This document shows positions 12,382-52,470 of a DNA stretch of 64,000 nt, piece after piece (the stretch's first letter is position 1; each line of letters starts with the position of its first letter). The translations under genes and the position numbers were made by a program. The notes under the pieces are model-generated. The model was not told the DNA's origin. It searched no databases and saw only the letters and a program-made list of their open reading frames with translations. This DNA comes from an uncultured Chitinophagales bacterium. Its GTDB lineage: Bacteria > Bacteroidota > Bacteroidia > Chitinophagales > JABDMM01. The DNA lies in contig CAXDOZ010000001.1 of the NCBI GenBank assembly GCA_963991145.1, positions 6,617-70,616 on the forward strand. Direction: 5' to 3'.

Positions 12382-12397
12382 ATCGATCAAGCTTAAG

Positions 12398-14498: not shown

Positions 14499-14499
14499 C

Positions 14500-15348: not shown

Positions 15349-15350
15349 AA

Positions 15351-17472: not shown

Positions 17473-17475
17473 AGT

Positions 17476-18126: not shown

Positions 18127-18136
18127 AAAGATAAAA

Positions 18137-19692: not shown

Positions 19693-20774
19693 TAGATAAC
19701 ACAGCACGCGTTAGATCTATAAGTATTGATTGCAGAGAAAGTCTCCTTTCAGCTATAAAGCAAATGGATAAGGAGTCATGCAAACTTCTCTTAGTGAAGA
19801 AAAATGGAGAATTCTTTTCCCTTATCAGTATTGGCGATATTCAAAGAGCCATATTGAATGAAGTCGACCTTGGGGATTCTATCGAGAATAATATCAGACC
19901 AAAAATACATGTTTGCTCAAGCTCCGATTCCGAGATCGAGATTAGAGAATCAATGAAAAAGTTCCGATCTGAGTTTATGCCAATCCTAAATTCTGGAGGG
20001 AAATTGACTCAGGTAGTCTTTTGGGATGAAGTATTTGAACAAAGTTTTAATCGTCATTCAAATACTGAATTTGACCTACCAGTAGTGATTATGGCAGGGG
20101 GAAAAGGAACTAGACTACAACCCATCACCAATATTATTCCTAAGCCGTTAGTTCCCTTGGGTGAAAAGCCGATTATGCAGGTCATAATTGATGATTTCGT
20201 AAATCTTGGGGTTTCTAAGTTCTACGCTTCCGTCAACTACAAATCAGAAATGATTGAGCAATTTTTCGACTCTATTCCGGAACGAAATTATAGTATCGAA
20301 TACTTTAAGGAAGATCAACCTTTAGGAACAGCAGGAAGTTTATCCTTGTTAAAGGATAAAATTTCCACCACCTTCTTTGTGAGTAATTGTGATATTCTTA
20401 TTGACCAGGATTATTCTGAGGTTCTCAAATTTCATAGAGAAAAAAAGAATGAGTTAACAGCTATGGCAGCCTTGAGGCATTATAAAATTCCATATGGCAC
20501 AATGGATATTGGAGAAGGAGGTCAACTGTTAAGACTAAGTGAAAAGCCTGAGCTTACCTTCACAGTAAACGCAGGTGTTTATATTCTAGAACCTCATCTC
20601 ATAGACGAGATTCCTGCGGGGGAATTTTTTCACATAACACACCTAATGGAACAAATTATGGCAAGAGATGGCCGTGTAGGAGTTTTTCCTGTAAGTGAAA
20701 AGAGTTGGATGGATATAGGTGAATGGAAAGAGTATGACAGAACCCAGGAACTTTTTAAACGTTGGGATCGATGA
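19689..20774 (+). CDS. CBS-domain sugar-phosphate nucleotidyltransferase (PtmE-like)
   Basis: 361 aa. An N-terminal CBS pair region (~aa 1-115) is followed by the NTP-transferase signature 'VVIMAGGKGTRLQPITNIIPKPLVPLGEKPIM'. ATGA overlap with the upstream gene. Confidence 0.8.
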   Translation: MIDNTARVRSISIDCRESLLSAIKQMDKESCKLLLVKKNGEFFSLISIGDIQRAILNEVDLGDSIENNIRPKIHVCSSSDSEIEIRESMKKFRSEFMPILNSGGKLTQVVFWDEVFEQSFNRHSNTEFDLPVVIMAGGKGTRLQPITNIIPKPLVPLGEKPIMQVIIDDFVNLGVSKFYASVNYKSEMIEQFFDSIPERNYSIEYFKEDQPLGTAGSLSLLKDKISTTFFVSNCDILIDQDYSEVLKFHREKKNELTAMAALRHYKIPYGTMDIGEGGQLLRLSEKPELTFTVNAGVYILEPHLIDEIPAGEFFHITHLMEQIMARDGRVGVFPVSEKSWMDIGEWKEYDRTQELFKRWDR

Positions 20775-22006
20775 AAGTGCTTTTCCTTGGTAGTAATCGC
20801 TTTGAAACAGTTAGAATTATTGCTGAGCACATCAAATCAAAGTATCCAGATTGGCAAATTGATGCTGTTGATCTAGTCCTTTTGCGTGAGGGAATGGATA
20901 TAGAACCTTTTAATAATAATTTGATCTCTACTGAATGGACAAAAGGTGAAAGGAGCACATTATTTCATTTTAGATTCCTTCTTAGAAAAGGGAAATTCTT
21001 TGGGGCTATAAAGAATGCTATAATAGACAGGAAACATGGTTTCTTTAATTCAATAAAGCACCTGTCAGAGTCCATTATGTTTGAGGAGAAAGCAGGTCAG
21101 TTGTTTTCGACTTATGACTTTTTTCATTTTCATTTCATAAGCCGAAAGGCTAGTAATTGGTTGAATTTCATTCCTTTAGAAAGTAAAGTAATTGCTTCCT
21201 TTTGGGGGTCAGATGCTTACAGAGTTCCAGATGAACCTACAATTTTTGCCCAAAGAGAGATCTTGAACCGGTCTAATATTGCCACTTGCCATTTTAACCA
21301 GATGCTTGAGGAAATCTTGATGAATTTAGGTGAAGAGTACAGGCCTAAATTCAAAACCATGCTTTTTGGTATGAAAGATTGGATGCGGGATAAAATTCTC
21401 CATTTTGATCAAATGAAGGGAAGGGATGCCTTTTTCCAACGATACTCTATCCCGTCAGGAAAAATTGCTATTCAGATTGCATATAGCAAAGCGAGAATAA
21501 TGCAACACCTTAAAGTGTTAAAAGGACTCGCTCCTTTGTCAGATGATGCTAAGGAACGATTTCACCTTGTCATTCCACTTACTTATGGCGAAGTTCATGA
21601 TTGGAATGAGTATAGATCAGAGATTGAGAAGGAAGCAGAGAAATCTGGTATATCCTTCACTTGCCTCTTTGATTATATGACTGATGATGAGGTTCTTGAA
21701 ATGGAAAGTGCTTGCGAAATCTTTATCAATTCGAGAACAACTGATGCCCTGAATGGAACAATGATGGAGCATTTTACTTTGTCTCATTTAGTTATTTCTG
21801 GGGGCTGGCTAAAGTATCAGATTTTAAAAGACTATGGCCTTTATATGCCAACATTTGATGAGTTTCAGGAACTGCCTGCTATCTTGGAATCATATCTAAT
21901 TAAACGGGAAGAATTAAGTGCAAAGTTTGAGTCTAACTCAAGAATTATTTCCGAAAGTTTTGTTTCATCAGCCTGGAGAGATCATTGGTTAAGTTTGTAT
22001 GACTAA
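20771..22006 (+). CDS. Putative glycosyltransferase, weakly WecF/GT56-like (tentative)
   Basis: About 411 aa. 'FHFHFISRKASNWLNFIPLESKVIASFWGSDAYR' resembles E. coli WecF 'FFHGQFNPTLWLALLSG..FWHIWGADLYE' as I recall it. A later 'HLVIPLTYGE..' region resembles WecF 'KVVVPMGYPP'. ATG 20771 (ATGA overlap) is preferred over the track's TTG 20762. Confidence 0.4.
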   Translation: MKVLFLGSNRFETVRIIAEHIKSKYPDWQIDAVDLVLLREGMDIEPFNNNLISTEWTKGERSTLFHFRFLLRKGKFFGAIKNAIIDRKHGFFNSIKHLSESIMFEEKAGQLFSTYDFFHFHFISRKASNWLNFIPLESKVIASFWGSDAYRVPDEPTIFAQREILNRSNIATCHFNQMLEEILMNLGEEYRPKFKTMLFGMKDWMRDKILHFDQMKGRDAFFQRYSIPSGKIAIQIAYSKARIMQHLKVLKGLAPLSDDAKERFHLVIPLTYGEVHDWNEYRSEIEKEAEKSGISFTCLFDYMTDDEVLEMESACEIFINSRTTDALNGTMMEHFTLSHLVISGGWLKYQILKDYGLYMPTFDEFQELPAILESYLIKREELSAKFESNSRIISESFVSSAWRDHWLSLYD

Positions 22007-23012
22007 GACCATGGAAGTATCTGTAGTAATCCCAGTATATAATGCCGGTAGGTATATTGAAGAGGCTGTTAGGTCTGCCCTCGATCAGAAAGAAACTATG
22101 GAGGTGATCCTGGTTGAAGACGGAAGTCCGGATGGCTCTCTTAAAGTTTGCAAAGAACTTGAAAAACTCGATTCCAGAGTTAAGCTCTTTACTCATCCCA
22201 ATAATGAGAATCGGGGGCCGGGCGAAACGCGGAATCTGGCATTATCTAAAGCATCACAGGAATGGATCGCATTTCTTGATGCCGATGATTTCTTTGATAA
22301 GAACCGATTCAGAGCAGAATTAGACTTGCTTAAAGAAGGGAATCTTTTAGATGGCTGCTATGGTGCCACTGGTTCTATTTTTGAAGAAAACATGTCTGAA
22401 GAAGAATTGAGTAAGTCAGGCATTTTAAAAGTGACCACATTTAAAAAGAAGATTCCGCCAGAAAGGTTGATCTATTCTATGCTTAGGGCAGATAAAGAGT
22501 ATTCAGGATTAGGCTACTTTTCAATTATTTCCCTCTTAGTAAATAGAAGAGTTGTAGATGATGGCATGATCTCATTCCCTGTTGATATGTATTATCACCA
22601 GGATACTTTCTTCAAATTGGCTGTAGCTGCCCTCTATAAATTGAATGCGGGGGATATTGAAAAACCAGTGGTTTATAGAAGAGTGCATCCGGAGAATAGA
22701 ATTACCAAAGTCAAGAATATTTCAAGAACAAAGGCCATTATGTTTGCCGAATTTGAAAAATGGTGCAAAGCTACTCCTACAGTCCCTCTAGATATATCTG
22801 AACTCGCCTGCGATCAGAAAGTCAATCATCAGTTAAGAGATCCAGACCAAAAAGGGAAGCTTGGAATTTTCCTCCGAAGGACGTTTAAATCAAAATCTTT
22901 TGTGTCCAACACTAACTTTTTTAATTCTGGAATTAGGAGTGCACTTGGGAATAATTTCCTTTCAAACTCTGTCATCAAGATAAAAGAGAAGATTCAATTT
23001 AGTGCTGTCTAG
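21999..23012 (+). CDS. GT2-family glycosyltransferase
   Basis: 337 aa with 'VSVVIPVYNAGRYIEEAVRSALDQ', 'VILVEDGSPDGS' and the DxD motif 'FLDADDFF'. Confidence 0.9.
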   Translation: MTKTMEVSVVIPVYNAGRYIEEAVRSALDQKETMEVILVEDGSPDGSLKVCKELEKLDSRVKLFTHPNNENRGPGETRNLALSKASQEWIAFLDADDFFDKNRFRAELDLLKEGNLLDGCYGATGSIFEENMSEEELSKSGILKVTTFKKKIPPERLIYSMLRADKEYSGLGYFSIISLLVNRRVVDDGMISFPVDMYYHQDTFFKLAVAALYKLNAGDIEKPVVYRRVHPENRITKVKNISRTKAIMFAEFEKWCKATPTVPLDISELACDQKVNHQLRDPDQKGKLGIFLRRTFKSKSFVSNTNFFNSGIRSALGNNFLSNSVIKIKEKIQFSAV

Positions 23013-23014
23013 AG

Positions 23015-23989
23015 ATGAAGTCATTAATCTGCATAAATACCTGTAATCGTCTGGATCTTTTAAGGTTCTACTCAGAGAGTTATTACAGGTTTTGTCTTTC
23101 GAATCCTGAGTTTGATTTCATTGTTTCCTTAGATGGAAACGAGCAGGATTATCTCAATTTTTTTGAGGAGCGGAAGATCCCTTATATCTCATCTGAAGAA
23201 AGAGCAGGAATTGGTATAGCTAAGAATAGAGTTCTTGACAAACTGCCAGATTATGATTTCTACTTTTTCATTGAGGACGATACTGAGATCAAAGATCTGA
23301 GCTATTTTGATGAGCAGATCAGAATTTCCCAAAAGACTGCAATTCCTCATTTCTCAGCCTTCGAGAAGAGCAGAATCCTGGATAAAAAGTCAGAGTTTGA
23401 ATTAGGAGAACAGAAAATAATCCAATCAATGCAAGGCTCCGCTCAAGTTAATTTTTTCTCTGGTGAAGGACTTCGAAAAGTAGGTGGCTGGCATACTGAA
23501 TTTGCCAAATACAAAAGATTTGGTCACACTGAGCATAGCTATCGTTTTGTAAATGCAGGATTGATGGATTACCCATTCAATGTTGTCGAATCTTTCATCA
23601 CCGATTGCTTCGATTTTCACGATCCACCTACTGTTACACGATCTACGAAGTTCGAGTTAAACCCAAAAACCAATTTAGCACTGGTAGAGGAGGCGATCAT
23701 CGATCAGAAGCTATCCTCCTTTCCAATAGAAGTTCCTGGATCATACAGTTTTGGAAACCTTGATTCCTGGCGTGATCAGCCACAGCCCGAGCCATTTTTA
23801 ACAGTACAGGAGAGAAAAGCATTTCTTTCTGAACGATATTTTGAAGAGGGTAGTAACAAGCTTTTCAGGAGGGACAAGGATGGACTTGGAATGCTATGGA
23901 AGTCAATTGTCTATAGCCCTTCCGGGCCAGATACAGGTAAGAAGATCAAAACATTGATGCGTCACCTGCCTCTTTTGTTCAATCGTTAA
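23015..23989 (+). CDS. GT-A-fold glycosyltransferase-like protein
   Basis: 324 aa with 'LICINTCNRLDLL', 'FIVSLDGNEQDY', 'GIGIAKNRVL' and a DxD-like 'FFIEDDTEI'. The family assignment is approximate. Confidence 0.5.
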   Translation: MKSLICINTCNRLDLLRFYSESYYRFCLSNPEFDFIVSLDGNEQDYLNFFEERKIPYISSEERAGIGIAKNRVLDKLPDYDFYFFIEDDTEIKDLSYFDEQIRISQKTAIPHFSAFEKSRILDKKSEFELGEQKIIQSMQGSAQVNFFSGEGLRKVGGWHTEFAKYKRFGHTEHSYRFVNAGLMDYPFNVVESFITDCFDFHDPPTVTRSTKFELNPKTNLALVEEAIIDQKLSSFPIEVPGSYSFGNLDSWRDQPQPEPFLTVQERKAFLSERYFEEGSNKLFRRDKDGLGMLWKSIVYSPSGPDTGKKIKTLMRHLPLLFNR

Positions 23990-24036
23990 TTTTTCGTCAA
24001 TTTAAATCATTGTGAGCCTAGCCGGAACCAATTATA

Positions 24037-24044
24037 TAAATTTG
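24037..24044 (+). promoter_or_regulatory. Candidate internal -7 box (TAAATTTG) in the 77-nt gap upstream of the GT2/7C-like gene
   Basis: An exact TAnnTTTG match lies 23 nt upstream of ATG 24067. The nearest upstream TTG (24010-24012) gives a 24-nt spacer, which is longer than typical. Confidence 0.3.
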
Positions 24045-24066
24045 GCTCCCGTTAAACGACTGAAGT

Positions 24067-25200
24067 ATGAATGCAGATCTAAGTCTCGTATTTTCTTATC
24101 GAGACAGAGAGGTAGATAGGGTAAAAAGATGTCTTGATTCCCTTTCTACTCAAACCGATGCCAATTTCAAGGTGATCTTCGTGGATTACGGTTCCAATGA
24201 TCAGTTCAGAAAGGAGATTGAGAGCCTGGTAAATTCGTATGATTTCTGCGAGTACATTTATTCTCATACTTATCAGCAGTTTTGGAATCGGTCCAAAGCC
24301 TTGAACATAGGTATTCAGCTAGTAGACACTCCTTATTACGCTACTACAGATATCGACCTGATCTTTGAGCCAAACTTTATCGAGGTAATGAGGTCAGAGA
24401 TGGGCCCGGATAAATTTGTGCATGGTCATGCTTTGTTTCTTGAAGAGGGGTTTTCAGATTATAAGAATCTCGACAAGCTTAATAAGAGTAATCTAGATCA
24501 ATCTAAGGCTGGAGTTCAGTACGGCCTTTTCCAGCTTGTTCCTACAAAGGTAATCAGGCAGCTTGACGGCTTTGATGAGTTCTTTAGAATATGGGGATTA
24601 GAAGATGTCGATCTAAATAAGAGATTACTCGCTCTTGGATTAAAGGAAAATTGGATCGATCCTTTGAAAACTCATGCCTGGCATCAATGGCACCCTCATA
24701 TTGGAGATCCACTTTTTACAAGAGATTGGTATCGTTTTATGGAGGATTATTTCTTTAGACAAACAAGCTCGAAAAGAAATAATGGAAACTGGGGTCAAAC
24801 TAAAGGTGAACAAGAAAGAAAAGTACTGAATCTGAAGTCTGATGAAGCTACTGTTCAAATTGAAAGAGACTTCCCCAGTAAAACCTCTGCCTTATATGAG
24901 TATCACATCCTTGAGCAGGTCTTTGATGAATTATCAGCTGGAGAGGTATTATCTGTGAAGTTCAATGACAAAGCCAGTGATATTAGTTTTTTTGAAAAAC
25001 TAAGAAACTCCTTGGTTCACAGAATAGGAGTCGACCTGAAAGTTGATATTGACAAGTACTATCAAAAACGAACTGACTTTATTGATGCATGCCGGGGATT
25101 GGTTTGGTTAATCGCTAAGAAGGAAAATCAGGGTACAATTGCCGACTATTGCTTTTATCGTGAAGGCAGATCATTTTACGTAAAACTTGAACGTAGATGA
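24067..25200 (+). CDS. GT2-like glycosyltransferase with a galactosyltransferase-type (Glyco_transf_7C-like) C-terminal motif
   Basis: 377 aa with 'LSLVFSYRDREVDRVKRCLDSLSTQ', 'KVIFVDYGSND', 'TTDIDLIF' and 'FFRIWGLEDVDLNKRL', which is a beta-1,4-GalT/chondroitin-GalNAcT-like WGxEDxD motif. Confidence 0.65.
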   Translation: MNADLSLVFSYRDREVDRVKRCLDSLSTQTDANFKVIFVDYGSNDQFRKEIESLVNSYDFCEYIYSHTYQQFWNRSKALNIGIQLVDTPYYATTDIDLIFEPNFIEVMRSEMGPDKFVHGHALFLEEGFSDYKNLDKLNKSNLDQSKAGVQYGLFQLVPTKVIRQLDGFDEFFRIWGLEDVDLNKRLLALGLKENWIDPLKTHAWHQWHPHIGDPLFTRDWYRFMEDYFFRQTSSKRNNGNWGQTKGEQERKVLNLKSDEATVQIERDFPSKTSALYEYHILEQVFDELSAGEVLSVKFNDKASDISFFEKLRNSLVHRIGVDLKVDIDKYYQKRTDFIDACRGLVWLIAKKENQGTIADYCFYREGRSFYVKLERR

Positions 25201-26099
25201 TTTTCGGACTCTCAAATGTTTCCTATTGCGATGATAGCGCCGTTAAGTTTGAAGAGTTATGCGAACTCGAGTACTTAGAGGGGATTTTTTCAAATTTGAG
25301 ATCAGACCTTGGGAGTACATTTGAAGGCTATGATTTTCAAATTTATTCCGCAAATAATACAAAAGGACCAACTCAAAAGACAAGTTCAAAGAAGACTGTA
25401 TTGATCTACATTTCAGATGAGACAATGCGAATCCCTGAACACCTGTCGGATAAGTACCATGCCATCTTTAAGTGTTACATCCCTGTTGATAGAATAGGAA
25501 ATATATTCTCACTTCCACTAGGATATGTGAATGGTAGAAAACAAAGTGATAGAGTTGAAATACTAAATAGAGATAACAATGTTTTCTTCTCTGGAAACCT
25601 CAATGAGAACAGATTCCCATTGTATCAGCATTTTAATTTATTCCGCTATTTACCTACCTGGGTTTTTACCAGATTATATTATAGGATCAAATCAAAATTA
25701 AAGTTTAATTACTCCGACTACTTCCCCAACTCCTATATAAACTTCACACACAAGTTTAACTCTGGTTTAAGTCCAGAGGAGTATACCAGGTACCTCTATA
25801 ACAGTAAGATCATTTTATGTCCCAAAGGATTTACTAGTGCGGAGACCTTTAGACATTATGAAGCAATGCAATCCGGCGGCATTGTCATTTCCCAGAGACT
25901 ACCAGATGTATTCTATTACAAGAACAGTCCAATAATTCAAATCGACTCCTGGGCGCAACTAGACGAGAAGGTAGGTGAATTGATTGGTGATGATGACAGG
26001 ATGAAAAAGATTCAACAGCAGACTTATAAGTGGTGGGATGAGGTTTGCTCAGAAAAAGCTGTTTCGAAGTATATTGCACAATCGCTTTCCCAATTGTAA
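25197..26099 (+). CDS. Exostosin-like (GT47-like) glycosyltransferase
   Basis: 300 aa with 'NVFFSGNLNENRFPLYQHF' and the exostosin C-terminal pattern 'SKIILCPKGFTSAETFRHYEAMQSGGIVIS'. ATGA overlap with the upstream gene. Confidence 0.6.
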   Translation: MIFGLSNVSYCDDSAVKFEELCELEYLEGIFSNLRSDLGSTFEGYDFQIYSANNTKGPTQKTSSKKTVLIYISDETMRIPEHLSDKYHAIFKCYIPVDRIGNIFSLPLGYVNGRKQSDRVEILNRDNNVFFSGNLNENRFPLYQHFNLFRYLPTWVFTRLYYRIKSKLKFNYSDYFPNSYINFTHKFNSGLSPEEYTRYLYNSKIILCPKGFTSAETFRHYEAMQSGGIVISQRLPDVFYYKNSPIIQIDSWAQLDEKVGELIGDDDRMKKIQQQTYKWWDEVCSEKAVSKYIAQSLSQL

Positions 26100-26104
26100 C
26101 ACCT

Positions 26105-26971
26105 GTGAATCCTATATTCTTATTAGCAGTATCCCCTAGATCAGGAAGTAACTACCTCTTCAGGTTACTATCTCGTCACCCAGATATTTGTCCGACGGGA
26201 ATCACAGGAGAGGACTTTCTTTTACGTTACAGTGATTCCCTAATCAACCATATTGATAAAGTTTCTGGCAATTGGAAAGAGAGTTGGGGGAATAGCAAAC
26301 AGGAACTTCAGGATTGCATGGCAGAAGGATGGATCAATTTTCTTCTCCCCGAGAAGATCCGAGATGATCAAAGATTAATAACTAAGACCCCAATGCCCTA
26401 TGGGGCGGAAAACTTCTTCCGCCTGTTTCCCAAAGGACAACTTCTTATCATAATCAGAAATGGTCCAGATGCCGTGGAATCATACCAAAAGACATTTGAT
26501 AAGAGCTTTGAAGCCTCAGTTAATAATTGGGCTCTTGGAGCCAGGACGATTCTTGAGTTAAGAAAGAATCACGCTGCTCTGGAGAATAAAAGCTTTAAGA
26601 TCGTCAGGTATGAGGATCTGTATTCAAATACTTCTGATAGCATAAAGGAGATCTTTAGCTTCCTCAATCTTGACCCTTCAAAATTTGACATGGAAGAAGC
26701 CCTTTCACAAGGAGTTATAGGCTCATCATCCCAAAGAGACAAGGGAGAAGAAGTTTCATGGAAGCAGGAAGAGGTTAAATCTCCGGACTTTGACCCAACG
26801 AGCAGGGCAAAAAACTGGACCAATGCAGAGAGATCAAGGTTTGATTATCTGGCGGGAACTGAACAAGCAGAATTGGGATATTCAAAGCTTTTGGAAAGGA
26901 AGTCACCTTTGTTTTTGATACAGAATTGGGCAAAAAGTGCATTCATTCGCTTCGGCCTCTCTAAAGCTTGA
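26105..26971 (+). CDS. PAPS-dependent sulfotransferase (3 of 4)
   Basis: Motifs 'FLLAVSPRSGSNYLFRLL' (5'-PSB), 'LLIIIRNGPDAVESY' (3'-PB) and 'KIVRYEDLYSN'. The track start TTG 26045 overlaps the upstream gene by 55 nt. GTG 26105, 5 nt after the upstream stop, puts the P-loop at the N-terminus. Confidence 0.8.
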   Translation: MNPIFLLAVSPRSGSNYLFRLLSRHPDICPTGITGEDFLLRYSDSLINHIDKVSGNWKESWGNSKQELQDCMAEGWINFLLPEKIRDDQRLITKTPMPYGAENFFRLFPKGQLLIIIRNGPDAVESYQKTFDKSFEASVNNWALGARTILELRKNHAALENKSFKIVRYEDLYSNTSDSIKEIFSFLNLDPSKFDMEEALSQGVIGSSSQRDKGEEVSWKQEEVKSPDFDPTSRAKNWTNAERSRFDYLAGTEQAELGYSKLLERKSPLFLIQNWAKSAFIRFGLSKA

Positions 26972-27014
26972 TGATAAAGAAACCTTAGGGAGGCTTCCAG
27001 GGAATCTAATTGCA

Positions 27015-27022
27015 TATATTTG
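27015..27022 (+). promoter_or_regulatory. Candidate internal -7 box (TATATTTG) in the 76-nt gap upstream of gmd
   Basis: An exact TAnnTTTG match lies 26 nt upstream of ATG 27048. I found no convincing -33 TTG at the usual spacing. Confidence 0.3.
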
Positions 27023-27047
27023 TTGCCCCTCAAATGCACTATAGTCA

Positions 27048-28160
27048 ATGAAAAAGGCACTTATTACAGGAATTACAGGGCAAGATGGTGCCTATCTTGC
27101 CAAATTTCTCCTTTCAAAGGGATATGAGGTTCACGGAATCAAGCGCCGTAGCTCTCTTTTCAATACTGGAAGGATCGATGATATCTATACAGATCCACAT
27201 ACAGACAACCAAAAGTTCATTCTCCATTTCGGAGATCTTTCCGACAGTGGGAACCTGATTCGATTGGTTCAGGAGATCCAACCCGATGAGATCTACAATC
27301 TGGGAGCGATGTCTCATGTTAAGGTGAGTTTCGATATGCCGGATTATACAGCAAACGTAGATGCAGTTGGAGCACTAAGGATCCTTGAAGCAATTCGTCT
27401 GCTAAACCTTCAGGATAAAACAAGATTCTATCAGGCCTCTACTTCTGAACTTTATGGTAAGGTTCAGGAGATCCCTCAATCTGAAACAACTCCATTCTAT
27501 CCAAGGTCACCTTATGCAGTTGCTAAGATGTATGCCTACTGGATCACTGTGAATTATAGAGAGGCTTATGACCTTTACGCCTGTAACGGAATTCTTTTCA
27601 ATCATGAATCTCCACTGCGGGGCGAGACATTTGTAACGCGTAAGATCACTCGTGCAATCTCAAGAATTGCTTTAGGTCTTCAGAAGACATGCTATCTGGG
27701 AAATCTGGATGCCAAGAGGGACTGGGGACATGCTAAAGATTATGTAGAAGCCATGTGGTTGATGCTGCAGCAAGATGAAGCTGAAGACTTTGTAATTGCT
27801 ACAGGTAAAACAACTACCGTAAGAGACTTTGTTGTAGAAAGCTGCAAGCAAGTTGGATGGGAGATCGAGTTCTCAGGAGAAGGAGAGGCAGAAAAGGGTA
27901 AAGTGGTTTCTTCTAATAACCCGGATTATCCAATTGAACCCGGTACCGTGATCATTGAAGTTGATCCAGCCTACTTTAGACCAACCGAAGTAGATCTGCT
28001 ACTTGGAGATCCAACAAAAGCAAAGCAGAAATTGAATTGGGAACCTAAGTATGACCTGGCAGAGATGGTCAGGGAAATGATGGAATCCGATATCGATCTA
28101 TTCAAAAGAGAGAAACTATTACTTGAAGGAGGACATATCGTTCACGAGGTAAAGGAGTAA
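27048..28160 (+). CDS. gmd: GDP-mannose 4,6-dehydratase
   Basis: 370 aa with '[35 protein letters not shown]', '[12 protein letters not shown]' and '[17 protein letters not shown]'. Confidence 0.97.
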
Positions 28161-28161
28161 A

Positions 28162-29142
28162 ATGGAATCGCTGAAGAATAAGAGAATACTGATTACAGGA
28201 GGAGCAGGATTCTTGGGAAAACATACGGTTGCTGCTTTTAAAAATGCCGGTGTAAAAGAAGAAGATATAATCATTCCAAGATCATCTGATTTTGATCTTC
28301 GATCGCTCGATAAAGCAAACGAACTAATTGAAGCAACTTCTCCGGATCTTGTAGTGAATATCGCTGCCAGACTTGGAGGAATTGGTGATAACAGAAGATA
28401 CCCCGCTTCATATTTCTACGACAACCTAATGATCGGGATCAACATGATCGAAGCCTGTCGTAAGCACCAAATTGGAAAACTCGTCAACATTGGGACTGTA
28501 TGTAGTTATCCCAAGATCCTTGAAGCACCATTCAAAGAAGAGGATCTTTGGAATGGCTATCCCGAAGAGACAAATGCACCTTACGGAGTTTCAAAAAAGT
28601 CGGTAATGGTCTATGGAGAGGCTGTTTATAGACAATATGGATTCAATAATGTAAACCTGCTTCTCACAAACCTTTACGGTCCCGGTGATGATTTCCGTGA
28701 AGCCACTTCTCATGTTATTCCGGCTATCATTAAGAAAATCGCAAATGCTAAGGATAATGGAGATGCTTTTATCGAAGCCTGGGGCGACGGCTCACCATCA
28801 AGGGATTTCCTTTACGTAGAGGATGCAGCACTTGCAATAGTAAAAGCCACCGCTTCACACGATGATCCTATGCCTGTAAATATTGGCGCAGGGAAAGAGA
28901 TCACTGTAAAAGAACTGATCGAGCTACTTGCAAAGTTGATCGGTTTTGATGGTGAAGTGAGATGGGATACTTCAAAGCCTAATGGGCAGCCAAGAAGGCT
29001 TCTTGATGTTTCAAAAGCAAAAGAAGGATTTGATTTTAGTTCTAATACAGATTTTGAAGACGGTTTGAGAAATACCATCGATTGGTACCTTTCAAACAGA
29101 TCGGAGATCGATCAATTACCTCCTAAATTTCAAATGGCATAA
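28162..29142 (+). CDS. fcl: GDP-L-fucose synthase (GDP-4-keto-6-deoxymannose 3,5-epimerase/4-reductase)
   Basis: 326 aa with 'ILITGGAGFLGKH', 'YPASYFYDNLMIGINMIEA', 'GTVCSYPK', 'NAPYGVSKK' and 'TNLYGPGDDF..SHVIPAII'. It starts 1 nt after the gmd stop. Confidence 0.88.
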   Translation: MESLKNKRILITGGAGFLGKHTVAAFKNAGVKEEDIIIPRSSDFDLRSLDKANELIEATSPDLVVNIAARLGGIGDNRRYPASYFYDNLMIGINMIEACRKHQIGKLVNIGTVCSYPKILEAPFKEEDLWNGYPEETNAPYGVSKKSVMVYGEAVYRQYGFNNVNLLLTNLYGPGDDFREATSHVIPAIIKKIANAKDNGDAFIEAWGDGSPSRDFLYVEDAALAIVKATASHDDPMPVNIGAGKEITVKELIELLAKLIGFDGEVRWDTSKPNGQPRRLLDVSKAKEGFDFSSNTDFEDGLRNTIDWYLSNRSEIDQLPPKFQMA

Positions 29143-30125
29143 TGGCTGATCAGAAAAGAGCACTTGTAACAGGAGGCGGAGGTTTTATTGGGTCTCACCT
29201 GGTGAAAAAGCTGAAGAAAGAAGGGTTTTGGGTAAGAGTAGCAGACTTGAAGTATCCTGAGTTTTCTCCTACGGTGGCCGATGACTTTATGCAGGGAGAT
29301 TTGAGAGATCAGGAATTCTGCGCAAGAGTCATAGATCAACCTTTCGACCATCTTTATACCCTTGCAGCTGACATGGGTGGGGCAGGTTATCTGTTCACCG
29401 GTGAGAACGATGCTGATGTGATGCACAACTCGGCGATGATCAATCTAAACGTGGCTCATTTAGCTGTAAAGCATAATGTTGGAAGAGTATTTTACTCCTC
29501 TAGCGCCTGTATTTACCCTGAATTCAATCAGCTTGACCCAGATAATCCAAACTGCGAAGAGAGCACTGCATATCCAGCTCAACCGGATAGTGAATACGGA
29601 TGGGAAAAACTGTTCAGCGAAAGGATGTTCCTGAATTTTGCAAAGAACTATGGGCTTGATGTTAAGATTGCCCGCTTTCACAACATTTTTGGACCTGAAG
29701 GAACCTGGACAGGAGGAAAGGAAAAAGTACCGGCTGCAATGTGCAGAAAAGTGGCAGAAGCAGAAGATGGTTCTTCTATTGAGGTTTGGGGGGATGGTCT
29801 TCAAACGAGATCATTTCTTTACATCGATGAGTGCCTTGAAGGAGTATGGAACCTTATGAATAGCGACAAATCCGGACCATTCAATATTGGTTCAGAAGAG
29901 ATGGTAAGTATCAATGAGCTCGCTGAAATTGTAATTGCTATATCAGGAAAGAACCTTTCATTAGATCACATTCCTGGTCCACAAGGAGTAAGAGGAAGAA
30001 CCTCGGATAATAAGCTCATTCAGGAGCAGATCGGCTGGAAGCCAAACTATCCTCTCAAAAAAGGACTGGAGAAGACTTTCTCATGGATCAATGAGCAGGT
30101 TCATGCTCATAGTACAAAGAGTTAA
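29142..30125 (+). CDS. gme: GDP-mannose 3,5-epimerase (plant GME-type; makes GDP-L-galactose/GDP-L-gulose)
   Basis: 327 aa, colinear with Arabidopsis GME as I recall that sequence: 'LAADMGGAGY', 'SSACIYPEFNQL' (catalytic Cys), 'SEYGWEKL' (Tyr), 'RFHNIFGPEGTWTGGKEKVPAAMCRK' (Lys), 'VWGDGLQTRSFLYIDECLEGV', 'HIPGPQGVRGRTSDN'. Confidence 0.85.
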   Translation: MADQKRALVTGGGGFIGSHLVKKLKKEGFWVRVADLKYPEFSPTVADDFMQGDLRDQEFCARVIDQPFDHLYTLAADMGGAGYLFTGENDADVMHNSAMINLNVAHLAVKHNVGRVFYSSSACIYPEFNQLDPDNPNCEESTAYPAQPDSEYGWEKLFSERMFLNFAKNYGLDVKIARFHNIFGPEGTWTGGKEKVPAAMCRKVAEAEDGSSIEVWGDGLQTRSFLYIDECLEGVWNLMNSDKSGPFNIGSEEMVSINELAEIVIAISGKNLSLDHIPGPQGVRGRTSDNKLIQEQIGWKPNYPLKKGLEKTFSWINEQVHAHSTKS

Positions 30126-30126
30126 G

Positions 30127-31305
30127 ATGACAGATAAGGGAATCCTTGGACATATTTTAAGGAAGTCGACCTATATCTGGCTTCATCTTGATATGGCTTT
30201 CTGTAAGACAGTAGCTAGAGTCTACGCTGCAATTCATGCGAAGAAGCCCAAGAAAGAAATTAAAAAAATTGCTGCTGTCTGGTATTGGCCAGAGAACTTC
30301 AATTCAGACGAATTGAGATTGGCCTATTGGGGAAAGTACTTCGAGAAAGACGGCTATCAATTTGACAATTTTAAAATTCTCGATGTAAAAGAATTTGTCG
30401 AGGAATATGAGAAGGGAACCTGGCCACAGAAGTACCTTTTCTACCGAAGAAACTACCTGAGACGTTGGAGGCAATTTTTTAAAATGAAGGATTACGATGT
30501 CGTTTGGATCGATCGTGCCTTCATGCCTTTTTATCCTTTTAAGTCAGCTGTTTATGAGCCATTGATCAAAAAGATGGGTGCTCATTTGGTTATGGATACC
30601 ACAGATGCATCTGACTATGAGAATAATCCGGATCTGGTTCTCTCAACGCTATCTCAGGCAGATAGAATTACGGCCGCATTTAAAAAGCTTGTAGAGTTTT
30701 ATCAACCCAAGTATCACAATGTTACTCGTCTAAATTGGACAGTACCTATTGAAGGATATGTTGTGAAGGATAATTGGAAACTAAAGGATCCGATCATCAT
30801 TGGTTGGATGGGCAGCCCGGGTAACTTTGAGTATTTAAGAGAAACCCTGGAACAGTTAAAGGAAGTAGCGAAAGAAGTCCCATTTACTTTTAGATATATC
30901 TGCAGGATCAAGCAGGATATTGATATCCCCGGAGCAACAATAGAACATCACTATTACGGAGATGATTATCACGATATCATTGGGACATTCGATATTGGAT
31001 TGGCTCCATTTACCAAGGTGTCTTTTGCCACAGAAGGTAAGATCGGAATGAAGCATCAGGAATTTATGATCTGCAAGATTCCGCAGGTTTGTAGTCCGGT
31101 TGCGATCTCTGAGCATGCTAAACATGAGGAGCATGTCCTTATCGCAAAGGATATAAGTGACTGGAAAGGCCTTATCTTAAGATTGCTTTCCGATGAAGAT
31201 CTAAGGACCAGATTGGGCAATAACAGCCGAGAGCTATTTGATGAGCACTATAATTATGACACCTGGTATCCAACTCTGAAGGAAGTCCTCACCGATTTTG
31301 ATTAA
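30127..31305 (+). CDS. GT-B-fold glycosyltransferase (GT4/GT1-like), paralogue of the 48164-49252 gene
   Basis: 'IIIGWMGSPGNFEYLRETLEQLKEV' and 'FDIGLAPF..GKIGMKHQEFMICKIPQVCSPV' parallel 'ITIGWTGSHSTLKYL' and 'IDIGLYPL..GKSGCKTITYMSIAIPSV' in the other gene. The track start 30091 overlaps gme. ATG 30127 lies 1 nt after the gme stop. Confidence 0.7.
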   Translation: MTDKGILGHILRKSTYIWLHLDMAFCKTVARVYAAIHAKKPKKEIKKIAAVWYWPENFNSDELRLAYWGKYFEKDGYQFDNFKILDVKEFVEEYEKGTWPQKYLFYRRNYLRRWRQFFKMKDYDVVWIDRAFMPFYPFKSAVYEPLIKKMGAHLVMDTTDASDYENNPDLVLSTLSQADRITAAFKKLVEFYQPKYHNVTRLNWTVPIEGYVVKDNWKLKDPIIIGWMGSPGNFEYLRETLEQLKEVAKEVPFTFRYICRIKQDIDIPGATIEHHYYGDDYHDIIGTFDIGLAPFTKVSFATEGKIGMKHQEFMICKIPQVCSPVAISEHAKHEEHVLIAKDISDWKGLILRLLSDEDLRTRLGNNSRELFDEHYNYDTWYPTLKEVLTDFD

Positions 31306-31311
31306 GAAGTA

Positions 31312-32418
31312 ATGGCAGACCGAATCCGAGTGCTTGTATATCCAAACTGGAAACGTGGAAGCGTTTACATGAATAAGCTGGAGGAAGCTGTTGAGGAGAA
31401 TGATATTGGCCTGGACTACACGAGTTTTCACGGAGCGATCTTCCCTCTTTCTAAGCAGTACATGAAGGGCTATCATTCAGTTCTTCAAATTCATTGGGTT
31501 AGTGTGCTCTTTGCCGCAGAAGTCAGGAACCCTGTTAAATTTTGGATAAGATACATTCTGGCATATCTCGACATCTGGTACGTTAGAAATATCCTCTCTG
31601 CCAAAATTGTATGGACAGTTCACAATCTTTATTCCCATGATGCAATCAGGAAAAACCTGGACCTTCGAGCGCGTAGATTTCTTGCTAAGCAATCTGATAT
31701 CCTTTTGTTACATGGACCCAGCGCTATCCCTCTGGTGACAGAAGCCTATAAAGTCGATAAGTCGAAATGCGTTTGTATTCCTCATGGAAATCAAAAAGGG
31801 GCCTTCCCCATGGAGATCTCCAAATTCGACGCAAGAGAAAAGCTCCAGATCGGTCAAAATAAAAAGGTGCTTCTGTTCTTCGGAACTTTAAGAAAGTATA
31901 AAGGGGTTGAGGAATTGATAGAGGCTTTTAAGTCAATTGATGATGAGAACCTCTTCCTGCTGATTGCAGGAAAGTGCCGAGACGAGTCTTACAGAAAAGA
32001 ATTAATGGGAATGGCAGATGATCGCACCTTGATCACTGACTCCTTTGTTCCGATTGATGAGGTTCAGGTATATATGGCTGCCGCGGATATTGTGGTCTTA
32101 CCGTTTAAAGAGATCCTCACTTCAGGATCGCTCTTGCTGGCAATGACCTTTGGAAAAATGATTGTGGCACCGAGGATGGGTACACTCCCGGATTATCTTC
32201 TGCCAGAAGGAGGTATTCTTTATGATGAGAAGAATGAAAACTTGAAAATTGCCTTGAACAGGGCAATGGAAATGGATACTGAGAAAGCGGGTGACTTTAA
32301 TAAAGAGAAAGTTGATCTATTTGACTGGGACAGAATTGGCGACTCAGTTGCCGATTGGTATAGAAAGCTGATCGATTCAAATAACCCTCATCCGAAAAAG
32401 AAGAATTGGTTCCAGTGA
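31312..32418 (+). CDS. GT4-family glycosyltransferase
   Basis: 368 aa with 'KKVLLFFGTLRKYKGVEELIEAF', 'LLIAGKC' and 'ADIVVLPFKEILTSGSLLLAMTFGKMIVAPRMG'. Confidence 0.85.
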   Translation: MADRIRVLVYPNWKRGSVYMNKLEEAVEENDIGLDYTSFHGAIFPLSKQYMKGYHSVLQIHWVSVLFAAEVRNPVKFWIRYILAYLDIWYVRNILSAKIVWTVHNLYSHDAIRKNLDLRARRFLAKQSDILLLHGPSAIPLVTEAYKVDKSKCVCIPHGNQKGAFPMEISKFDAREKLQIGQNKKVLLFFGTLRKYKGVEELIEAFKSIDDENLFLLIAGKCRDESYRKELMGMADDRTLITDSFVPIDEVQVYMAAADIVVLPFKEILTSGSLLLAMTFGKMIVAPRMGTLPDYLLPEGGILYDEKNENLKIALNRAMEMDTEKAGDFNKEKVDLFDWDRIGDSVADWYRKLIDSNNPHPKKKNWFQ

Positions 32419-33365
32419 TTGAAGGATTGAAATATCGGGTCTCTAAAATTCAGGGGAAAATTGAAGCCAAAAAGATCGCTTCAGAGTTCAAAGACCAGAG
32501 TTTGAGAACTCCCCCGGTTTTTATTTTGGGTGCCCCAAGAACTGGCAGTACGATCCTATACCAATTACTAAGTTCACAGGGCGATTTTTTTTATTTCAAT
32601 AATTATCTGGCTAAGAATCATCAAACTCCTGCAAAAGCTTTAAAGACCTTTGCAAGTAAAGGAGGACAATTTAAGCACGACTCTTTTAACTCCAAATTCG
32701 GAGAGACTTCAGGAGACAATGCCCCAAGTGAGGCTGGATACTTTTGGTACAGATGGATCCCAGAAGGACATCATGAATTGAAAAAATCCGATCTAAGTAA
32801 AGATGACCTGGACCAGATCTCGTCCTACTTTAAATTCTTTGAATCCCAATCTCAACTCCCGATCCTCATTAAGAACCTAAACATGGGATTGAGGATGGAT
32901 CTGATAAGGTCAATTCACCCGCAAGCAAGAATCATTCACATTGTAAGGAATACCCTTGACAACTCAAGGTCAATACTGAAGGGAAGAATTAAGTATGGGA
33001 ATTCAGAGGATTTTTGGTTTGGATCAAAACCCAATGAATGGCAGGACTGGCAAAATGGCTCAGTAGCCGAGCAAATCGTGGGACAGATTGAGTGGATGAA
33101 TAATTCTATCCTGAAGGGTGCCAAACAGTTAGGTGATGAGTGTTATTTGCGAATCCGATATGAGGATCTGGTGAAGGACACTGATTCCACGATCAAAGAG
33201 ATCAAGAACTTTTTAAAGAATGGAAACATAGAAATTGAGCATGGATTTCCATCTTTGAGCAAAGAATCCCAAAATGAAGAGCAGCTTGAGCTCTCTGATT
33301 TTGATAAAGAAGTAATTGAATTGGTTAAGAGTAAGGGTACAGAAAGCAATACCCTTTATCTATAG
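32415..33365 (+). CDS. PAPS-dependent sulfotransferase (4 of 4)
   Basis: Motifs 'VFILGAPRTGSTILYQLL' (5'-PSB), 'ARIIHIVRNTLDNSRSIL' (3'-PB) and 'LRIRYEDLVKD'. The track start is TTG 32406. GTG 32415 gives a GTGA overlap with the upstream stop. Confidence 0.8.
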   Translation: MIEGLKYRVSKIQGKIEAKKIASEFKDQSLRTPPVFILGAPRTGSTILYQLLSSQGDFFYFNNYLAKNHQTPAKALKTFASKGGQFKHDSFNSKFGETSGDNAPSEAGYFWYRWIPEGHHELKKSDLSKDDLDQISSYFKFFESQSQLPILIKNLNMGLRMDLIRSIHPQARIIHIVRNTLDNSRSILKGRIKYGNSEDFWFGSKPNEWQDWQNGSVAEQIVGQIEWMNNSILKGAKQLGDECYLRIRYEDLVKDTDSTIKEIKNFLKNGNIEIEHGFPSLSKESQNEEQLELSDFDKEVIELVKSKGTESNTLYL

Positions 33366-33382
33366 CTAATATCACCCCAAGT

Positions 33383-34324
33383 ATGAGCAGCCAGAACAGC
33401 CCCAAAAACTGGAAAGAAGAATACATCAATAGTGCCAGGGATGATTGGTATCTCTATCATCAACCATACTATTTAGATGCAGTTACAAATGGAAACTGGG
33501 ATGTAGTTAGATTCCCGGAAGAGGGTCAGGCAAAGGCTTTTTTACCCTATGTGACGAGGAAAGAGAGAGATGGCAATGCTATTGTCATGCCTCCCTACAC
33601 TGCATTTCTAGGCCCTGTTTTCCTGGAAGATCTTAGTACCTCCAAACAATATGCTGCCATTGAAGGCCTGTTGGATAATTTGCCTGATTGTCCTTTCATT
33701 GAGCAGAGATGGAATCCATCGATTGAAAATTGGCTGCCTGCTTATTGGAAGAATTTCGAACAGCAGACCAGGTACACCTACATTATTGACTGCCCCGGAG
33801 ATGAAGAACAGATCTGGAAAGAGATCTCATCCAAGAAGCGAAATGCGATCCGTAAGGCAGAAAAGAATCTGACAATTGAAGAGGCGCCCAAAGATGTACT
33901 CCTAGAAAAGACATCATGGATGGCCTTCCTGAATCACGATAAGAATGCCCTTTCAAATATCATTGATACTCTTGGTGAGCGAGGTCAAATGAAGATCCTG
34001 GGAACAAAGAATGATCAGGGAGAGTGGAGTAATCTGGCCCTGTTTGTTTGGGATAAGAGCAGGATGTACTATTTGGTTGGCTTGAGAGATAATTCTAAAA
34101 AGGACGATGAAGGGATGAATCTTCTCCTTTGGACAGCCATGAAAGATGCACCTGAAGGAATTGAGATATTCGATTTCGAAGGAAGCATGATCAAAGGAAT
34201 TGAGACCTTCTTCAGATTGTTGGGAGGGAAGCCGCAAGCATATTTTCAGATCTCAAAGTCATTTTCCAGATATCGTAACTTTAGAAAAGGAGTTTCATTC
34301 CTGCTCAAAGCACTAAAGGGTTAA
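33383..34324 (+). CDS. FemAB/Acetyltransf_6-like GNAT-fold acyl- or aminoacyl-transferase (VimA-like candidate)
   Basis: 313 aa with 'IWKEISSKKRNAIRKAEKN' (typical of the FemAB-related/CelD-like family), 'LALFVWDKSRMYYLVG' and 'NLLLWTAMKDA'. Confidence 0.6.
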   Translation: MSSQNSPKNWKEEYINSARDDWYLYHQPYYLDAVTNGNWDVVRFPEEGQAKAFLPYVTRKERDGNAIVMPPYTAFLGPVFLEDLSTSKQYAAIEGLLDNLPDCPFIEQRWNPSIENWLPAYWKNFEQQTRYTYIIDCPGDEEQIWKEISSKKRNAIRKAEKNLTIEEAPKDVLLEKTSWMAFLNHDKNALSNIIDTLGERGQMKILGTKNDQGEWSNLALFVWDKSRMYYLVGLRDNSKKDDEGMNLLLWTAMKDAPEGIEIFDFEGSMIKGIETFFRLLGGKPQAYFQISKSFSRYRNFRKGVSFLLKALKG

Positions 34325-35598
34325 TGTCTGATCTTTCAACCGAACAATTATCTATCTACCTCAAAGCCCAAACCTTTGAATGGCTGGTCAGCTATTCTAA
34401 TGAAACTGAATGGCAGGTAATTGTTGAAGGAGATTCAATTTCCATCGGCCTGAAAGGCCAGATCTATAAGGAGGATTTGCCAGAGAAAATACCTGACAGA
34501 AATCAAATCACCTCTCTTTTAAATTCCTTAGAATCCAATCAAAGCTTAAAGCAGGATCTTCCATTTATCTCTTTGCTGGATTTCTTTTGGCGTGAACAGT
34601 ATTTAAAGAAACCCCTTCAACTTGATGCTCATAAACGAGTTTCTAAAGATTCAATTCAACCCGAATATCTTGAAATTCTAGGCTGGCCGATCTTTGATAT
34701 TCTAATGCACTCTCTGCTGGATCAATTTGGAGTAAAGCCTCAAAGGGGAAAGACTGTTACGCTAAGCTGTGATTATGATTTCGCCAATATCTGGAATCAG
34801 CTGAACGAGTTATCTGCGGCTAAGCAATTATTGAGAATAGGCGCAGGAAAAGGTCTTAGCGCTTTTTATAAGTCATTTCAGTCAATGTCAAATGCTGAGA
34901 AAGAATTGAAATGGAATGGCTCTTTGAACAGAGAAATGTTTTCACCAGATCTGGATCTGGGAAATGAAATTGAAATAAATCGGATTGCATTCCTCCTAAT
35001 TCATCAGACCAATAAAAATTTCGATCCAAAGAATAATACTAGCAGCAATTCATATTCAAACTTCCTATCTCAACTAGCTAAAGAGGGAATTGAAGTTGGT
35101 CTTCATCCGGGATATGATACCAGATATCAGGGAGAGGAAAGTATGATTCTTCAAAAGGATATGCTCCAATCAATTTCTTCCTCAATTATTCAGAAGTTGA
35201 GATTCCATTATTTGAATGCTGATCTCCCTCATGACCTGCGTTTGTTGGAGGCTGCAGGAATTAAGGAGGATTATTCATTTGCTTTTGCAGACACCCTCCT
35301 CTTTAGATCGGGAAGGTCCACTCCCTGCAGGTACTGGGATTTTGAATTAGAAAGAATGATTGATGTCCTTTCTGTTCCTCTTACAATAATGGATACAACA
35401 TTGGTAGAATACTCAGCTGGAAATGGTAACATGAGCAGCCATTTAGAGAGAGCCTGGACCTTTGGGCAATCCATAAATATTCTGTTTCACAATCAATACT
35501 TTGACCCCTTTATCGAATACCCCAAAGCCGCCGAGGTTCAATCATTGTATTCCCAATGCATAGAACACTTACAAGCTTTAAGTTCAGGCAACATTTGA
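34324..35598 (+). CDS. Conserved hypothetical protein (candidate VimE-like/divergent sugar deacetylase; function not established)
   Basis: 424 aa, with its start overlapping the upstream stop (TAATG). There are no TM segments. Possible metal or acid-base patches are 'TLSCDYDF' and 'VGLHPGYDT'. I recognise no firm family signature. Confidence 0.45.
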   Translation: MSDLSTEQLSIYLKAQTFEWLVSYSNETEWQVIVEGDSISIGLKGQIYKEDLPEKIPDRNQITSLLNSLESNQSLKQDLPFISLLDFFWREQYLKKPLQLDAHKRVSKDSIQPEYLEILGWPIFDILMHSLLDQFGVKPQRGKTVTLSCDYDFANIWNQLNELSAAKQLLRIGAGKGLSAFYKSFQSMSNAEKELKWNGSLNREMFSPDLDLGNEIEINRIAFLLIHQTNKNFDPKNNTSSNSYSNFLSQLAKEGIEVGLHPGYDTRYQGEESMILQKDMLQSISSSIIQKLRFHYLNADLPHDLRLLEAAGIKEDYSFAFADTLLFRSGRSTPCRYWDFELERMIDVLSVPLTIMDTTLVEYSAGNGNMSSHLERAWTFGQSINILFHNQYFDPFIEYPKAAEVQSLYSQCIEHLQALSSGNI

Positions 35599-35636
35599 GG
35601 GTCAATTTTTTCTAAGTTTGCACCAAATTTGAATTG

Positions 35637-38029: not shown

Positions 38030-38039
38030 GCTCAGGAAA

Positions 38040-39332: not shown

Positions 39333-39345
39333 ATATATTTGCAGG

Positions 39346-40440: not shown

Positions 40441-40522
40441 GCGAATTTATCCTCGCTATTTGCCTATCTTGCGTACCTTGAAATTTCAATGTTTATAAGC
40501 CTTTCGCAAGTCTAAAGCGCCT

Positions 40523-41656: not shown

Positions 41657-41657
41657 T

Positions 41658-42245: not shown

Positions 42246-42249
42246 AGAG

Positions 42250-43230: not shown

Positions 43231-43232
43231 AG

Positions 43233-48162: not shown

Positions 48163-48163
48163 C

Positions 48164-52468: not shown

Positions 52469-52470
52469 AA

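Follow-up and report, generated by a model that had tools for sequence, protein, structure and literature searches.

A gmd-fcl-gme gene triad and its adjoining glycosyltransferase in a surface-polysaccharide locus of an uncultured Chitinophagales bacterium

Organisation and assignment of the triad

The DNA analysed was a 64,000 nucleotide (nt) stretch, referred to here as the window, of contig CAXDOZ010000001.1 from the assembly of an uncultured Chitinophagales bacterium (accession: GCA_963991145.1). Within a long run of polysaccharide genes on its + strand lie three back-to-back genes which we have designated gmd, fcl and gme. They very probably encode a GDP-mannose 4,6-dehydratase (Gmd), a GDP-L-fucose synthase (Fcl) and a 3,5-epimerase of GDP-mannose (GME) respectively, and are followed by a glycosyltransferase (GT) gene (Table 1). 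The open reading frame (ORF) coordinates and the junction sequences confirmed the spacing of +1, -1 and +1 nt given for these genes in a preliminary description of this DNA. The gmd stop codon (TAA, 28158-28160) is separated by a single base from the fcl ATG at 28162, the final A of the fcl stop codon (TAA, 29140-29142) is the first base of the gme ATG at 29142 (TAATG), and the gme stop codon (TAA, 30123-30125) is followed by a single base and then by the ATG of the GT gene at 30127. An alternative in-frame ATG for the GT gene is found at 30091; full-length homologues aligned from 30127, and this start was the choice of two out of three independent gene calls. Co-translation of the gene set would be in keeping with the one-base junctions.

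Analysis of Gmd showed that it scored 588 bits against the TIGR01472 equivalog profile, for which the cut-off is 415, with residues 2-350 covered, and 506 bits against Pfam PF16363. The 18 best matches of Fcl in the PDB were all GDP-L-fucose synthases (E=1.6e-62 to 2.4e-28), and its match to the E. coli GDP-fucose synthetase had E=4e-57. The aligned-column signature of Fcl was T-C-Y-K-N-H, which represents the Ser/Thr-Tyr-Lys triad and the Cys/His epimerisation pair, and the motifs GTVCSYP, APYGVSKK and TSHVIPA were contained in its translation. Orthologues with 55-81% identity to Fcl were always encoded downstream of gmd (loci L084, L087, L089, L101, L103, L104 and L110), which supports the assignment of Fcl as a GDP-L-fucose synthase. 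An adjacent pair is likewise encoded within the colanic acid polysaccharide locus of E. coli, an example of the classical bacterial gmd-fcl (wcaG) pair for GDP-L-fucose (structures 1BSV/1E6U), and Fcl there is also of the Cys/His type. The E. coli pair has no attached GME, whereas the third gene of the window would add a second, 6-hydroxylated L-galacto donor.

An alignment of the window GME with the Arabidopsis thaliana enzyme (PDB 2C59) was collinear over residues 6-325 of 327 (E=8.3e-103) and showed 50.5% identity across 315 aligned residues. The best match outside GME among the short-chain dehydrogenases/reductases (SDRs), a UDP-glucuronate decarboxylase, had E=1.1e-30, so that the gap in E-value from the GME structures to the next SDR was more than 70 orders of magnitude. 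Eight residues of the Arabidopsis enzyme (S143, C145, Y174, K178, N203, K217, R243 and R306) define GME and set it apart from both GDP-fucose synthase and GalE (PMC8787198). All eight were kept in the window protein, as S121, C123, Y152, K156, N181, K195, R223 and R286; these are the catalytic triad (S121, Y152, K156), the Cys/Lys acid-base pair (C123/K195), the Cys-acidifying R286, the diphosphate-binding R223 and the conserved N181. The sequence contexts SSACIYPE, SEYGWEK and GGKEKVPAA, to which the preliminary description had drawn attention, are all present in the translation and aligned to Cys145, Tyr174/Lys178 and Lys217 of the Arabidopsis enzyme respectively. The glycine motif GGGGFIG was found at residues 11-17, and the extended-SDR family PF01370 matched with 157 bits.

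As Lys instead of His in the acid-base pair distinguishes GME from GDP-fucose synthase (PMC8787198), this column was compared between the two neighbouring proteins of the triad. It contained K195 in the window GME and His in Fcl. The possibility that gme was a second fcl was ruled out by this column and by overall similarity. The assignments of Gmd, Fcl and GME made earlier are thus supported by profile scores, PDB matches and residue conservation.

The Arabidopsis GME (PDB 2C59/2C54/2C5A/2C5E) is extended at its N- and C-termini, by ~25 and ~30 residues, and its nucleotide motif is GxxGxxA where the window protein has GGGGFIG; it supplies ascorbate and cell-wall synthesis, whereas the window GME is encoded in a bacterial polysaccharide operon. 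MfGM35E of Methylacidiphilum fumariolicum SolV (UniProt I0K0X9; PMC6678494) and the window GME are both single-domain extended SDRs of ~320-330 aa, each ~50% identical to the Arabidopsis GME, that share the Ser/Tyr/Lys triad, the Cys/Lys pair and the Cys-acidifying Arg. Both adjoin glycosyltransferase genes, and for both a role in surface glycan synthesis is proposed. However, the host of MfGM35E is a thermoacidophile of the Verrucomicrobiota rather than a member of the Bacteroidota and, according to the description of its neighbourhood in PMC6678494, its gene is not joined to gmd-fcl. BlmG of bleomycin synthesis and the epimerases of the A201A pathway (PMC6678494) are bacterial GME homologues that give L-gulose or L-galactose to a glycoconjugate, as is proposed here, but they are encoded in secondary-metabolite clusters of Actinobacteria and not in surface-polysaccharide loci; BlmG is 42% identical to the plant enzyme according to PMC6678494.

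Table 1. Features of the triad and of the surrounding polysaccharide locus, with positions in the window
Feature	Position	Strand	Length	Basis or remark
gmd, predicted GDP-mannose 4,6-dehydratase	27048..28160	+	370 aa	TIGR01472, PF16363
fcl, predicted GDP-4-keto-6-deoxy-D-mannose 3,5-epimerase/4-reductase (GDP-L-fucose synthase type)	28162..29142	+	326 aa	PDB matches, signature
gme, GDP-mannose 3,5-epimerase homologue	29142..30125	+	327 aa	Match to 2c59, residues
Glycosyltransferase, GT-B fold, candidate GDP-L-fucose/GDP-L-galactose-dependent transferase	30127..31305	+	392 aa	Weak PF13524, AlphaFold model, neighbourhood
Possible Bacteroidota-type -7 promoter box, TATATTTG	27015..27022	+		Fits TAnnTTTG; 25 nt upstream of gmd start
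Second glycosyltransferase, GT4-type	31312..32418	+	368 aa	PF00534, PF13692; same sub-operon
Sulfotransferase	32406..33365	+	319 aa	PF00685, PF13469; PRTGST 5'-phosphosulfate-binding (5'-PSB)-like motif; same sub-operon
Sulfotransferase	26045..26971	+		PF13469, weak PF00685; directly upstream of triad
Sulfotransferase-like ORF	13686..14498	+		PF13469 25.7 bits (cut-off 27); GRTGT and RDP motifs
Sulfotransferase-like ORF	14482..15348	+		PF13469 36.2 bits; GRTGT and RDP motifs
Carbamoyltransferase, NodU/CmcH type	35634..37484	+		PF02543, PF16861
Whole surface-polysaccharide locus	11527..58072	+	46.5 kb	42 + strand ORFs; Wzm/Wzt to Wza/Wzc and initiating transferase

Bacterial GME genes and their neighbourhoods

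A search with the window GME revealed at least 8000 homologues at E<=1e-20, the best 120 of which were all at least 69% identical to it; several of these were already labelled 'GDP-D-mannose 3',5'-epimerase' by the Joint Genome Institute (JGI). Among 1.84 billion cluster representatives, searched exhaustively with HMMER, 1,025 clusters reached E<=1e-30. With one genome per GTDB species, 119 relatives were confirmed, the 80 listed being 64-74% identical to the window protein; with a best match of 74%, the source organism itself was not among these species representatives. Homologues with 64-83% identity were spread over many bacterial phyla. The 80 GTDB loci belonged to Bacteroidota, Acidobacteriota, Alpha-, Beta-, Gamma- and Deltaproteobacteria/Myxococcota, Chloroflexota, Nitrospirota, Thermotogae and others. 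The eight-residue signature (SCYKNKRR) was identical in 67 of 101 full-length representatives of the family. In 2011, Yin et al. had counted 43 close bacterial GME homologues (PMC3220709). With a family this abundant across bacterial phyla, the term 'plant-type' used for the epimerase in the preliminary description was not borne out, and the rarity and novelty that it implied were over-estimated. Its statement that characterised GMEs from bacteria are few was correct, as the M. fumariolicum enzyme is the only bacterial one in a table of characterised enzymes (PMC8787198).

A horizontal origin from plants or algae was not indicated either, as the nearest GME relatives in named genomes were from Bacteroidota, the phylum of the host itself. 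Recent acquisition from either of these groups was rejected on the basis of 50% identity to the Arabidopsis enzyme compared to 70-83% to those of Bacteroidota and other bacteria. This placement was made from pairwise identities and the census of the active-site signature. Elsewhere in the window, the polysaccharide locus is abutted by a gene on the - strand (5842-11499) for a 1885-aa PKD-repeat protein with a C-terminal sorting domain of the type IX secretion system (T9SS), which is a Bacteroidota marker, and the nearest named relatives of PurH (65-67% identical) were apparently from marine genera of Flavobacteriaceae, in agreement with a Bacteroidota host.

GME fusions were also observed. In five cluster representatives (P0243, P0245, P0246, P0247 and P0248) of 665-769 aa, the GME domain is complete and terminal, and a second domain is fused to it.

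The neighbourhoods of the 80 species-level GME loci were compared with that of the window. GT2 genes were found in 22 loci and GT4 genes in 14, and flippases and WbaP-type transferases were also present, which shows the bacterial GMEs to be polysaccharide genes. Within 6 kb on either side of GME, fcl was found in none of the 80 loci and gmd in one (L012). The gmd-fcl-gme arrangement of the window is therefore unusual among GME loci. The full triad was also present on one metagenome contig, L084, which encodes, in order, a GT2, an RXYLT1_C-like protein, gmd, fcl, gme, the GT, a GT4, a sulfotransferase, two unknowns and a carbamoyltransferase. Its gmd, fcl, gme and GT showed 82%, 81%, 82% and 84% identity to those of the window respectively, so that at least two lineages have kept the module. 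The GME family was already known in bacteria; the window contributes a new member in an uncommon gene arrangement.

The adjoining glycosyltransferase family and the proposed pathway

A PDB sequence search with the GT encoded directly 3' of gme gave no match, and Pfam gave only a weak match to PF13524. Its AlphaFold model (predicted local distance difference test score, pLDDT, 94) has a GT-B fold, and the nearest solved folds are those of GT4 enzymes, including BshA, PimA and MshA, at 10-15% identity and template-modelling (TM) scores of 0.6-0.65. Approximately 90 homologous clusters were found. One candidate match, the fucosyltransferase family of Bacteroidetes O-glycosylation (PMC8698959), was rejected, as it is an unrelated GT2 family with a DXD motif.

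Long contigs, and a scan of metagenomes with an alignment of the family, provided the gene contexts of the GT family (the window and loci L084 and L086-L111). After dereplication at 90% identity, 20 lineages had homologues at least 40% identical to the window GT together with some upstream sequence. In 17 of these the GT adjoined gmd/fcl, GME or both: gmd and/or fcl in 10, GME in five and both in two (the window and L084); the remaining three had neither. The partner GMEs all contained the full signature and the partner Fcl proteins all contained the Cys/His signature. More distant members of the family (23-34% identity) showed the same neighbourhood pattern. A module of the GT, a GT4 and a carbamoyltransferase recurred in L086, L088, L091 and L093. 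A divergent GME subgroup was seen in L096, L097, L099, L100 and L106. These proteins were 48% identical to the window GME with the full SCYKNKRR, and their genes lay on the opposite strand, ~1.3 kb upstream of a GT gene of this family.

L-fucose is 6-deoxy-L-galactose and has the L-galacto configuration. The simplest reading of these contexts is that the family transfers an L-galacto-configured sugar from GDP-L-fucose or GDP-L-galactose; since its members stand beside either gmd-fcl or GME, L-galactose is favoured over L-gulose as the sugar supplied by GME. It has been reported that fucosyltransferases can accept GDP-L-galactose (PMC8787198). What is new here is the GT-B family itself, so far uncharacterised, which is nominated as a candidate GDP-L-fucose/GDP-L-galactose transferase.

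The 76 nt gap upstream of gmd holds the sequence TATATTTG. This fits TAnnTTTG, the consensus of the Bacteroidota -7 promoter box. Four of the 20 + strand matches to the consensus in the locus fell within 461 nt of short intergenic gaps, compared to ~0.2 expected, and those at 24037-24044, 27015-27022 and 51680-51687 were 22-25 nt upstream of starts (24067, 27048 and 51713 respectively). The boxes are consistent with a division of the locus into sub-operons, and the motif suggests that gmd may open a transcription unit that extends to ~35598. A scan for sigma-70 promoters and terminators around the triad gave fewer sites than shuffled sequence and was uninformative.

In the proposed pathway, the triad would open a sub-operon (~27048-35598) of the polysaccharide locus and turn one GDP-D-mannose pool into two L-sugar donors. 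Gmd would dehydrate GDP-mannose to its 4-keto-6-deoxy derivative, of which Fcl would epimerise C3 and C5 with its Cys/His pair and reduce C4 to give GDP-beta-L-fucose, making this branch effectively irreversible. GME, which would compete with Gmd for GDP-mannose, would transiently oxidise C4 with bound NAD+, invert C5 and C3 by means of Cys123/Lys195, with Arg286 acidifying the Cys, and re-reduce C4; its expected products are GDP-beta-L-galactose and some GDP-L-gulose. The equilibrium of the characterised bacterial GME is ~80:15:5, with L-galactose the major product (~15% compared to 5%), and because this is unfavourable the flux would have to be pulled by glycosyl transfer. The GT encoded one base 3' of gme is the most likely consumer of the products of the triad, and the sulfo-, carbamoyl- and methyltransferases of the locus would then decorate the polymer.

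With gene identities, residue conservation and neighbourhood statistics as its observed part, and enzyme activities, the sugar used by the GT, operon boundaries and glycan composition as its inferred part, this account of the triad and the downstream GT is considered likely overall. That L-galactose is incorporated into the glycan is somewhat less secure, though we lean towards it. The preliminary description had proposed a glycan containing both L-fucose and L-galactose (or L-gulose); this is plausible and was strengthened by the survey of GT neighbourhoods, the support being indirect. The fullest version, in which the gmd-fcl-gme-GT module represents an unrecognised GT-B family that uses GDP-L-fucose and GDP-L-galactose interchangeably and serves a sulfated, carbamoylated L-fucose/L-galactose surface glycan, is put forward tentatively.

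The two donors could be alternatives at one position, with a donor-tolerant GT adding either L-fucose or L-galactose (6-hydroxy-L-fucose) and the outcome being microheterogeneity or a back-up route. That some lineages pair the GT family with gmd-fcl and others pair it with GME agrees with this, as does the acceptance of GDP-L-galactose by fucosyltransferases (PMC8787198). However, the locus encodes at least nine glycosyltransferases, so that separate L-fucose and L-galactose transferases are possible, and the retention of the triad at 81-82% identity in L084 suggests selection on both routes; alternation at one position is considered rather unlikely. A somewhat smaller probability is given to the GT being a GDP-mannose-dependent mannosyltransferase, linked to gmd, fcl and gme by a shared GDP-mannose pool. 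Its nearest folds do include GDP-mannose enzymes of a GT4-like group (methylmannose-polysaccharide mannosyltransferase, PimA and PimB'), but at the low identity and TM scores of these matches only the fold is shared. Moreover, there is no GDP-mannose synthesis gene beside the family in the window, and 17 of the 20 lineages have an enzyme that would convert GDP-mannose towards an L-galacto sugar.

Use of GDP-L-gulose, the product of 5-epimerisation only, would give a glycan with L-gulose and has a precedent in bleomycin, for which the GME homologue BlmG has been proposed as the L-gulose source (PMC6678494). This appears improbable for the window, as the adjacent GT family is served elsewhere by GDP-L-fucose genes, and the GME product that matches the L-galacto configuration of L-fucose is L-galactose, which is also the major GME product. 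Action of the epimerase on the 6-deoxy GDP-sugars of its neighbours instead of on GDP-mannose, for example between GDP-L-fucose and GDP-D-rhamnose or GDP-6-deoxy-L-gulose, would explain why it is attached to gmd-fcl here, which is unusual among GME loci. It is nevertheless very improbable: the window GME has 64-83% identity to, and the same active-site signature as, GMEs with no gmd or fcl nearby, and no such activity is described in the GME literature cited here.

Several observations weigh against the proposed two-donor pathway. Fcl scored 275 bits against the NCBIfam equivalog NF047922, for which the cut-off is 500, although this was still its top-scoring family and the match was full length (residues 5-315 of 326). 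Neither mannose-1-phosphate guanylyltransferase (ManC) nor phosphomannomutase (ManB) was recognised in the window, so the supply of GDP-mannose is assumed to be encoded elsewhere. The nearest folds of the GT are those of retaining GT4 enzymes that use UDP- or GDP-alpha-D-sugars, including GDP-mannose (PimA), and on the model it could be a mannosyltransferase. The activity of GME is assigned from sequence for the window protein and its close relatives alike, and the sequence does not decide between L-galactose and L-gulose as the product used. Additionally, the operon boundaries were placed by a short promoter-like motif only. The product of 19689-20774, the only NTP-transferase recognised, was tried as a GDP-mannose pyrophosphorylase and rejected, as it scored under all cut-offs and has an N-terminal extension of 130 residues; a place in the LegB/LegC branch described below is more likely.

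A literature search for L-galactose in bacterial capsules and O-antigens returned almost only work on plant ascorbate, and reports of this sugar in bacterial glycans are rare; in the full-text library searched, GDP-L-galactose and O-antigen were named together in only two papers. D- and L-galactose are not told apart by routine composition analysis. As GME homologues are very common in bacterial polysaccharide loci, L-galactose and L-gulose may therefore be under-detected in bacterial glycans. The module of the window is a compact and conserved setting in which this could be tested, and current understanding is not overturned by it. If the fullest version were true, the glycan would be the bacterial equivalent of the sulfated galactofucans of algae, and the module would be a natural source of L-galactosyltransferases. 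The GT family could be of use for enzymatic L-galactosylation.

The surrounding polysaccharide locus

The locus begins with Wzm/Wzt, two sulfotransferase-like ORFs, LegB, LegC, an acetyltransferase, a PIG-L deacetylase, a formyltransferase and an NTP-transferase. These are followed by several glycosyltransferases, a sulfotransferase, the triad, two glycosyltransferases, a sulfotransferase, the carbamoyltransferase and an exosortase-like protein. The late part encodes WecB, aminotransferase, acetyltransferase and oxidoreductase genes, an asparagine-synthase-like protein, methyltransferases, an RmlD-like reductase, Wza, Wzc and an initiating transferase. A GalE-like SDR is also encoded.

Four sulfotransferase-like ORFs, the number given in the preliminary description, were found; three match Pfam families, and the fourth is 1.3 bits under the cut-off with the same motifs. 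The likening of the product to an algal sulfated fucan or galactofucan in that description is speculative. LegB/LegC, WecB, the carbamoyl- and methyltransferases, the asparagine synthase-like amidotransferase and the number of glycosyltransferases point towards a complex heteroglycan rather than a fucan, and the probability of a sulfated fucan-like polymer is considered low. The loci of Pontiella (PMC7356697) and 'Ca. Phaeomarinobacter' (PMC4110880) similarly have PF13469 sulfotransferases among GT2/GT4 and amino-sugar enzymes. They have been read as glycosaminoglycan-like or undefined, with no GME or L-galactose reported there, and the comparison is one between predictions.

Among the genes next to the triad, the sulfotransferase directly upstream was absent from the syntenic contig L084, and a PDB sequence search with the RXYLT1_C-like protein (25197-26099) gave no match. 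The GT4-type gene was conserved 3' of the first GT in L084, L088 and L091. The carbamoyltransferase was 78% identical in L084 and recurred near the GT family in L084, L086, L088, L091 and L093. Directly 3' of it, 37484-38029 encodes a 181-aa membrane protein of three segments with a weak exosortase (EpsH) match.

The region between 15351 and 20774 encodes LegB (496 bits; cut-off 475) and LegC (545 bits; cut-off 420), and 3' of these a NeuD/PglB-type acetyltransferase, the PIG-L deacetylase, the formyltransferase and the extended NTP-transferase. No nonulosonic acid synthase was seen in this branch, which looks like one for a nucleotide-linked 2,4-diamino-2,4,6-trideoxyhexose, possibly N-formylated.

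The + strand run is opened by the ABC-transporter pair Wzm and Wzt, the latter with a Wzt_C domain (11527-13702), and closed by Wza-like, Wzc-like and Glycos_transf_4 initiating-transferase genes (53667-58072). This combination may reflect two systems lying side by side or a hybrid mode of export. The sole minus-strand gene in the locus (50251-51567) encodes a protein of 438 aa without a Pfam match, in which at least eight segments are hydrophobic and which could be a polymerase, a ligase or a GT-C-like membrane protein.

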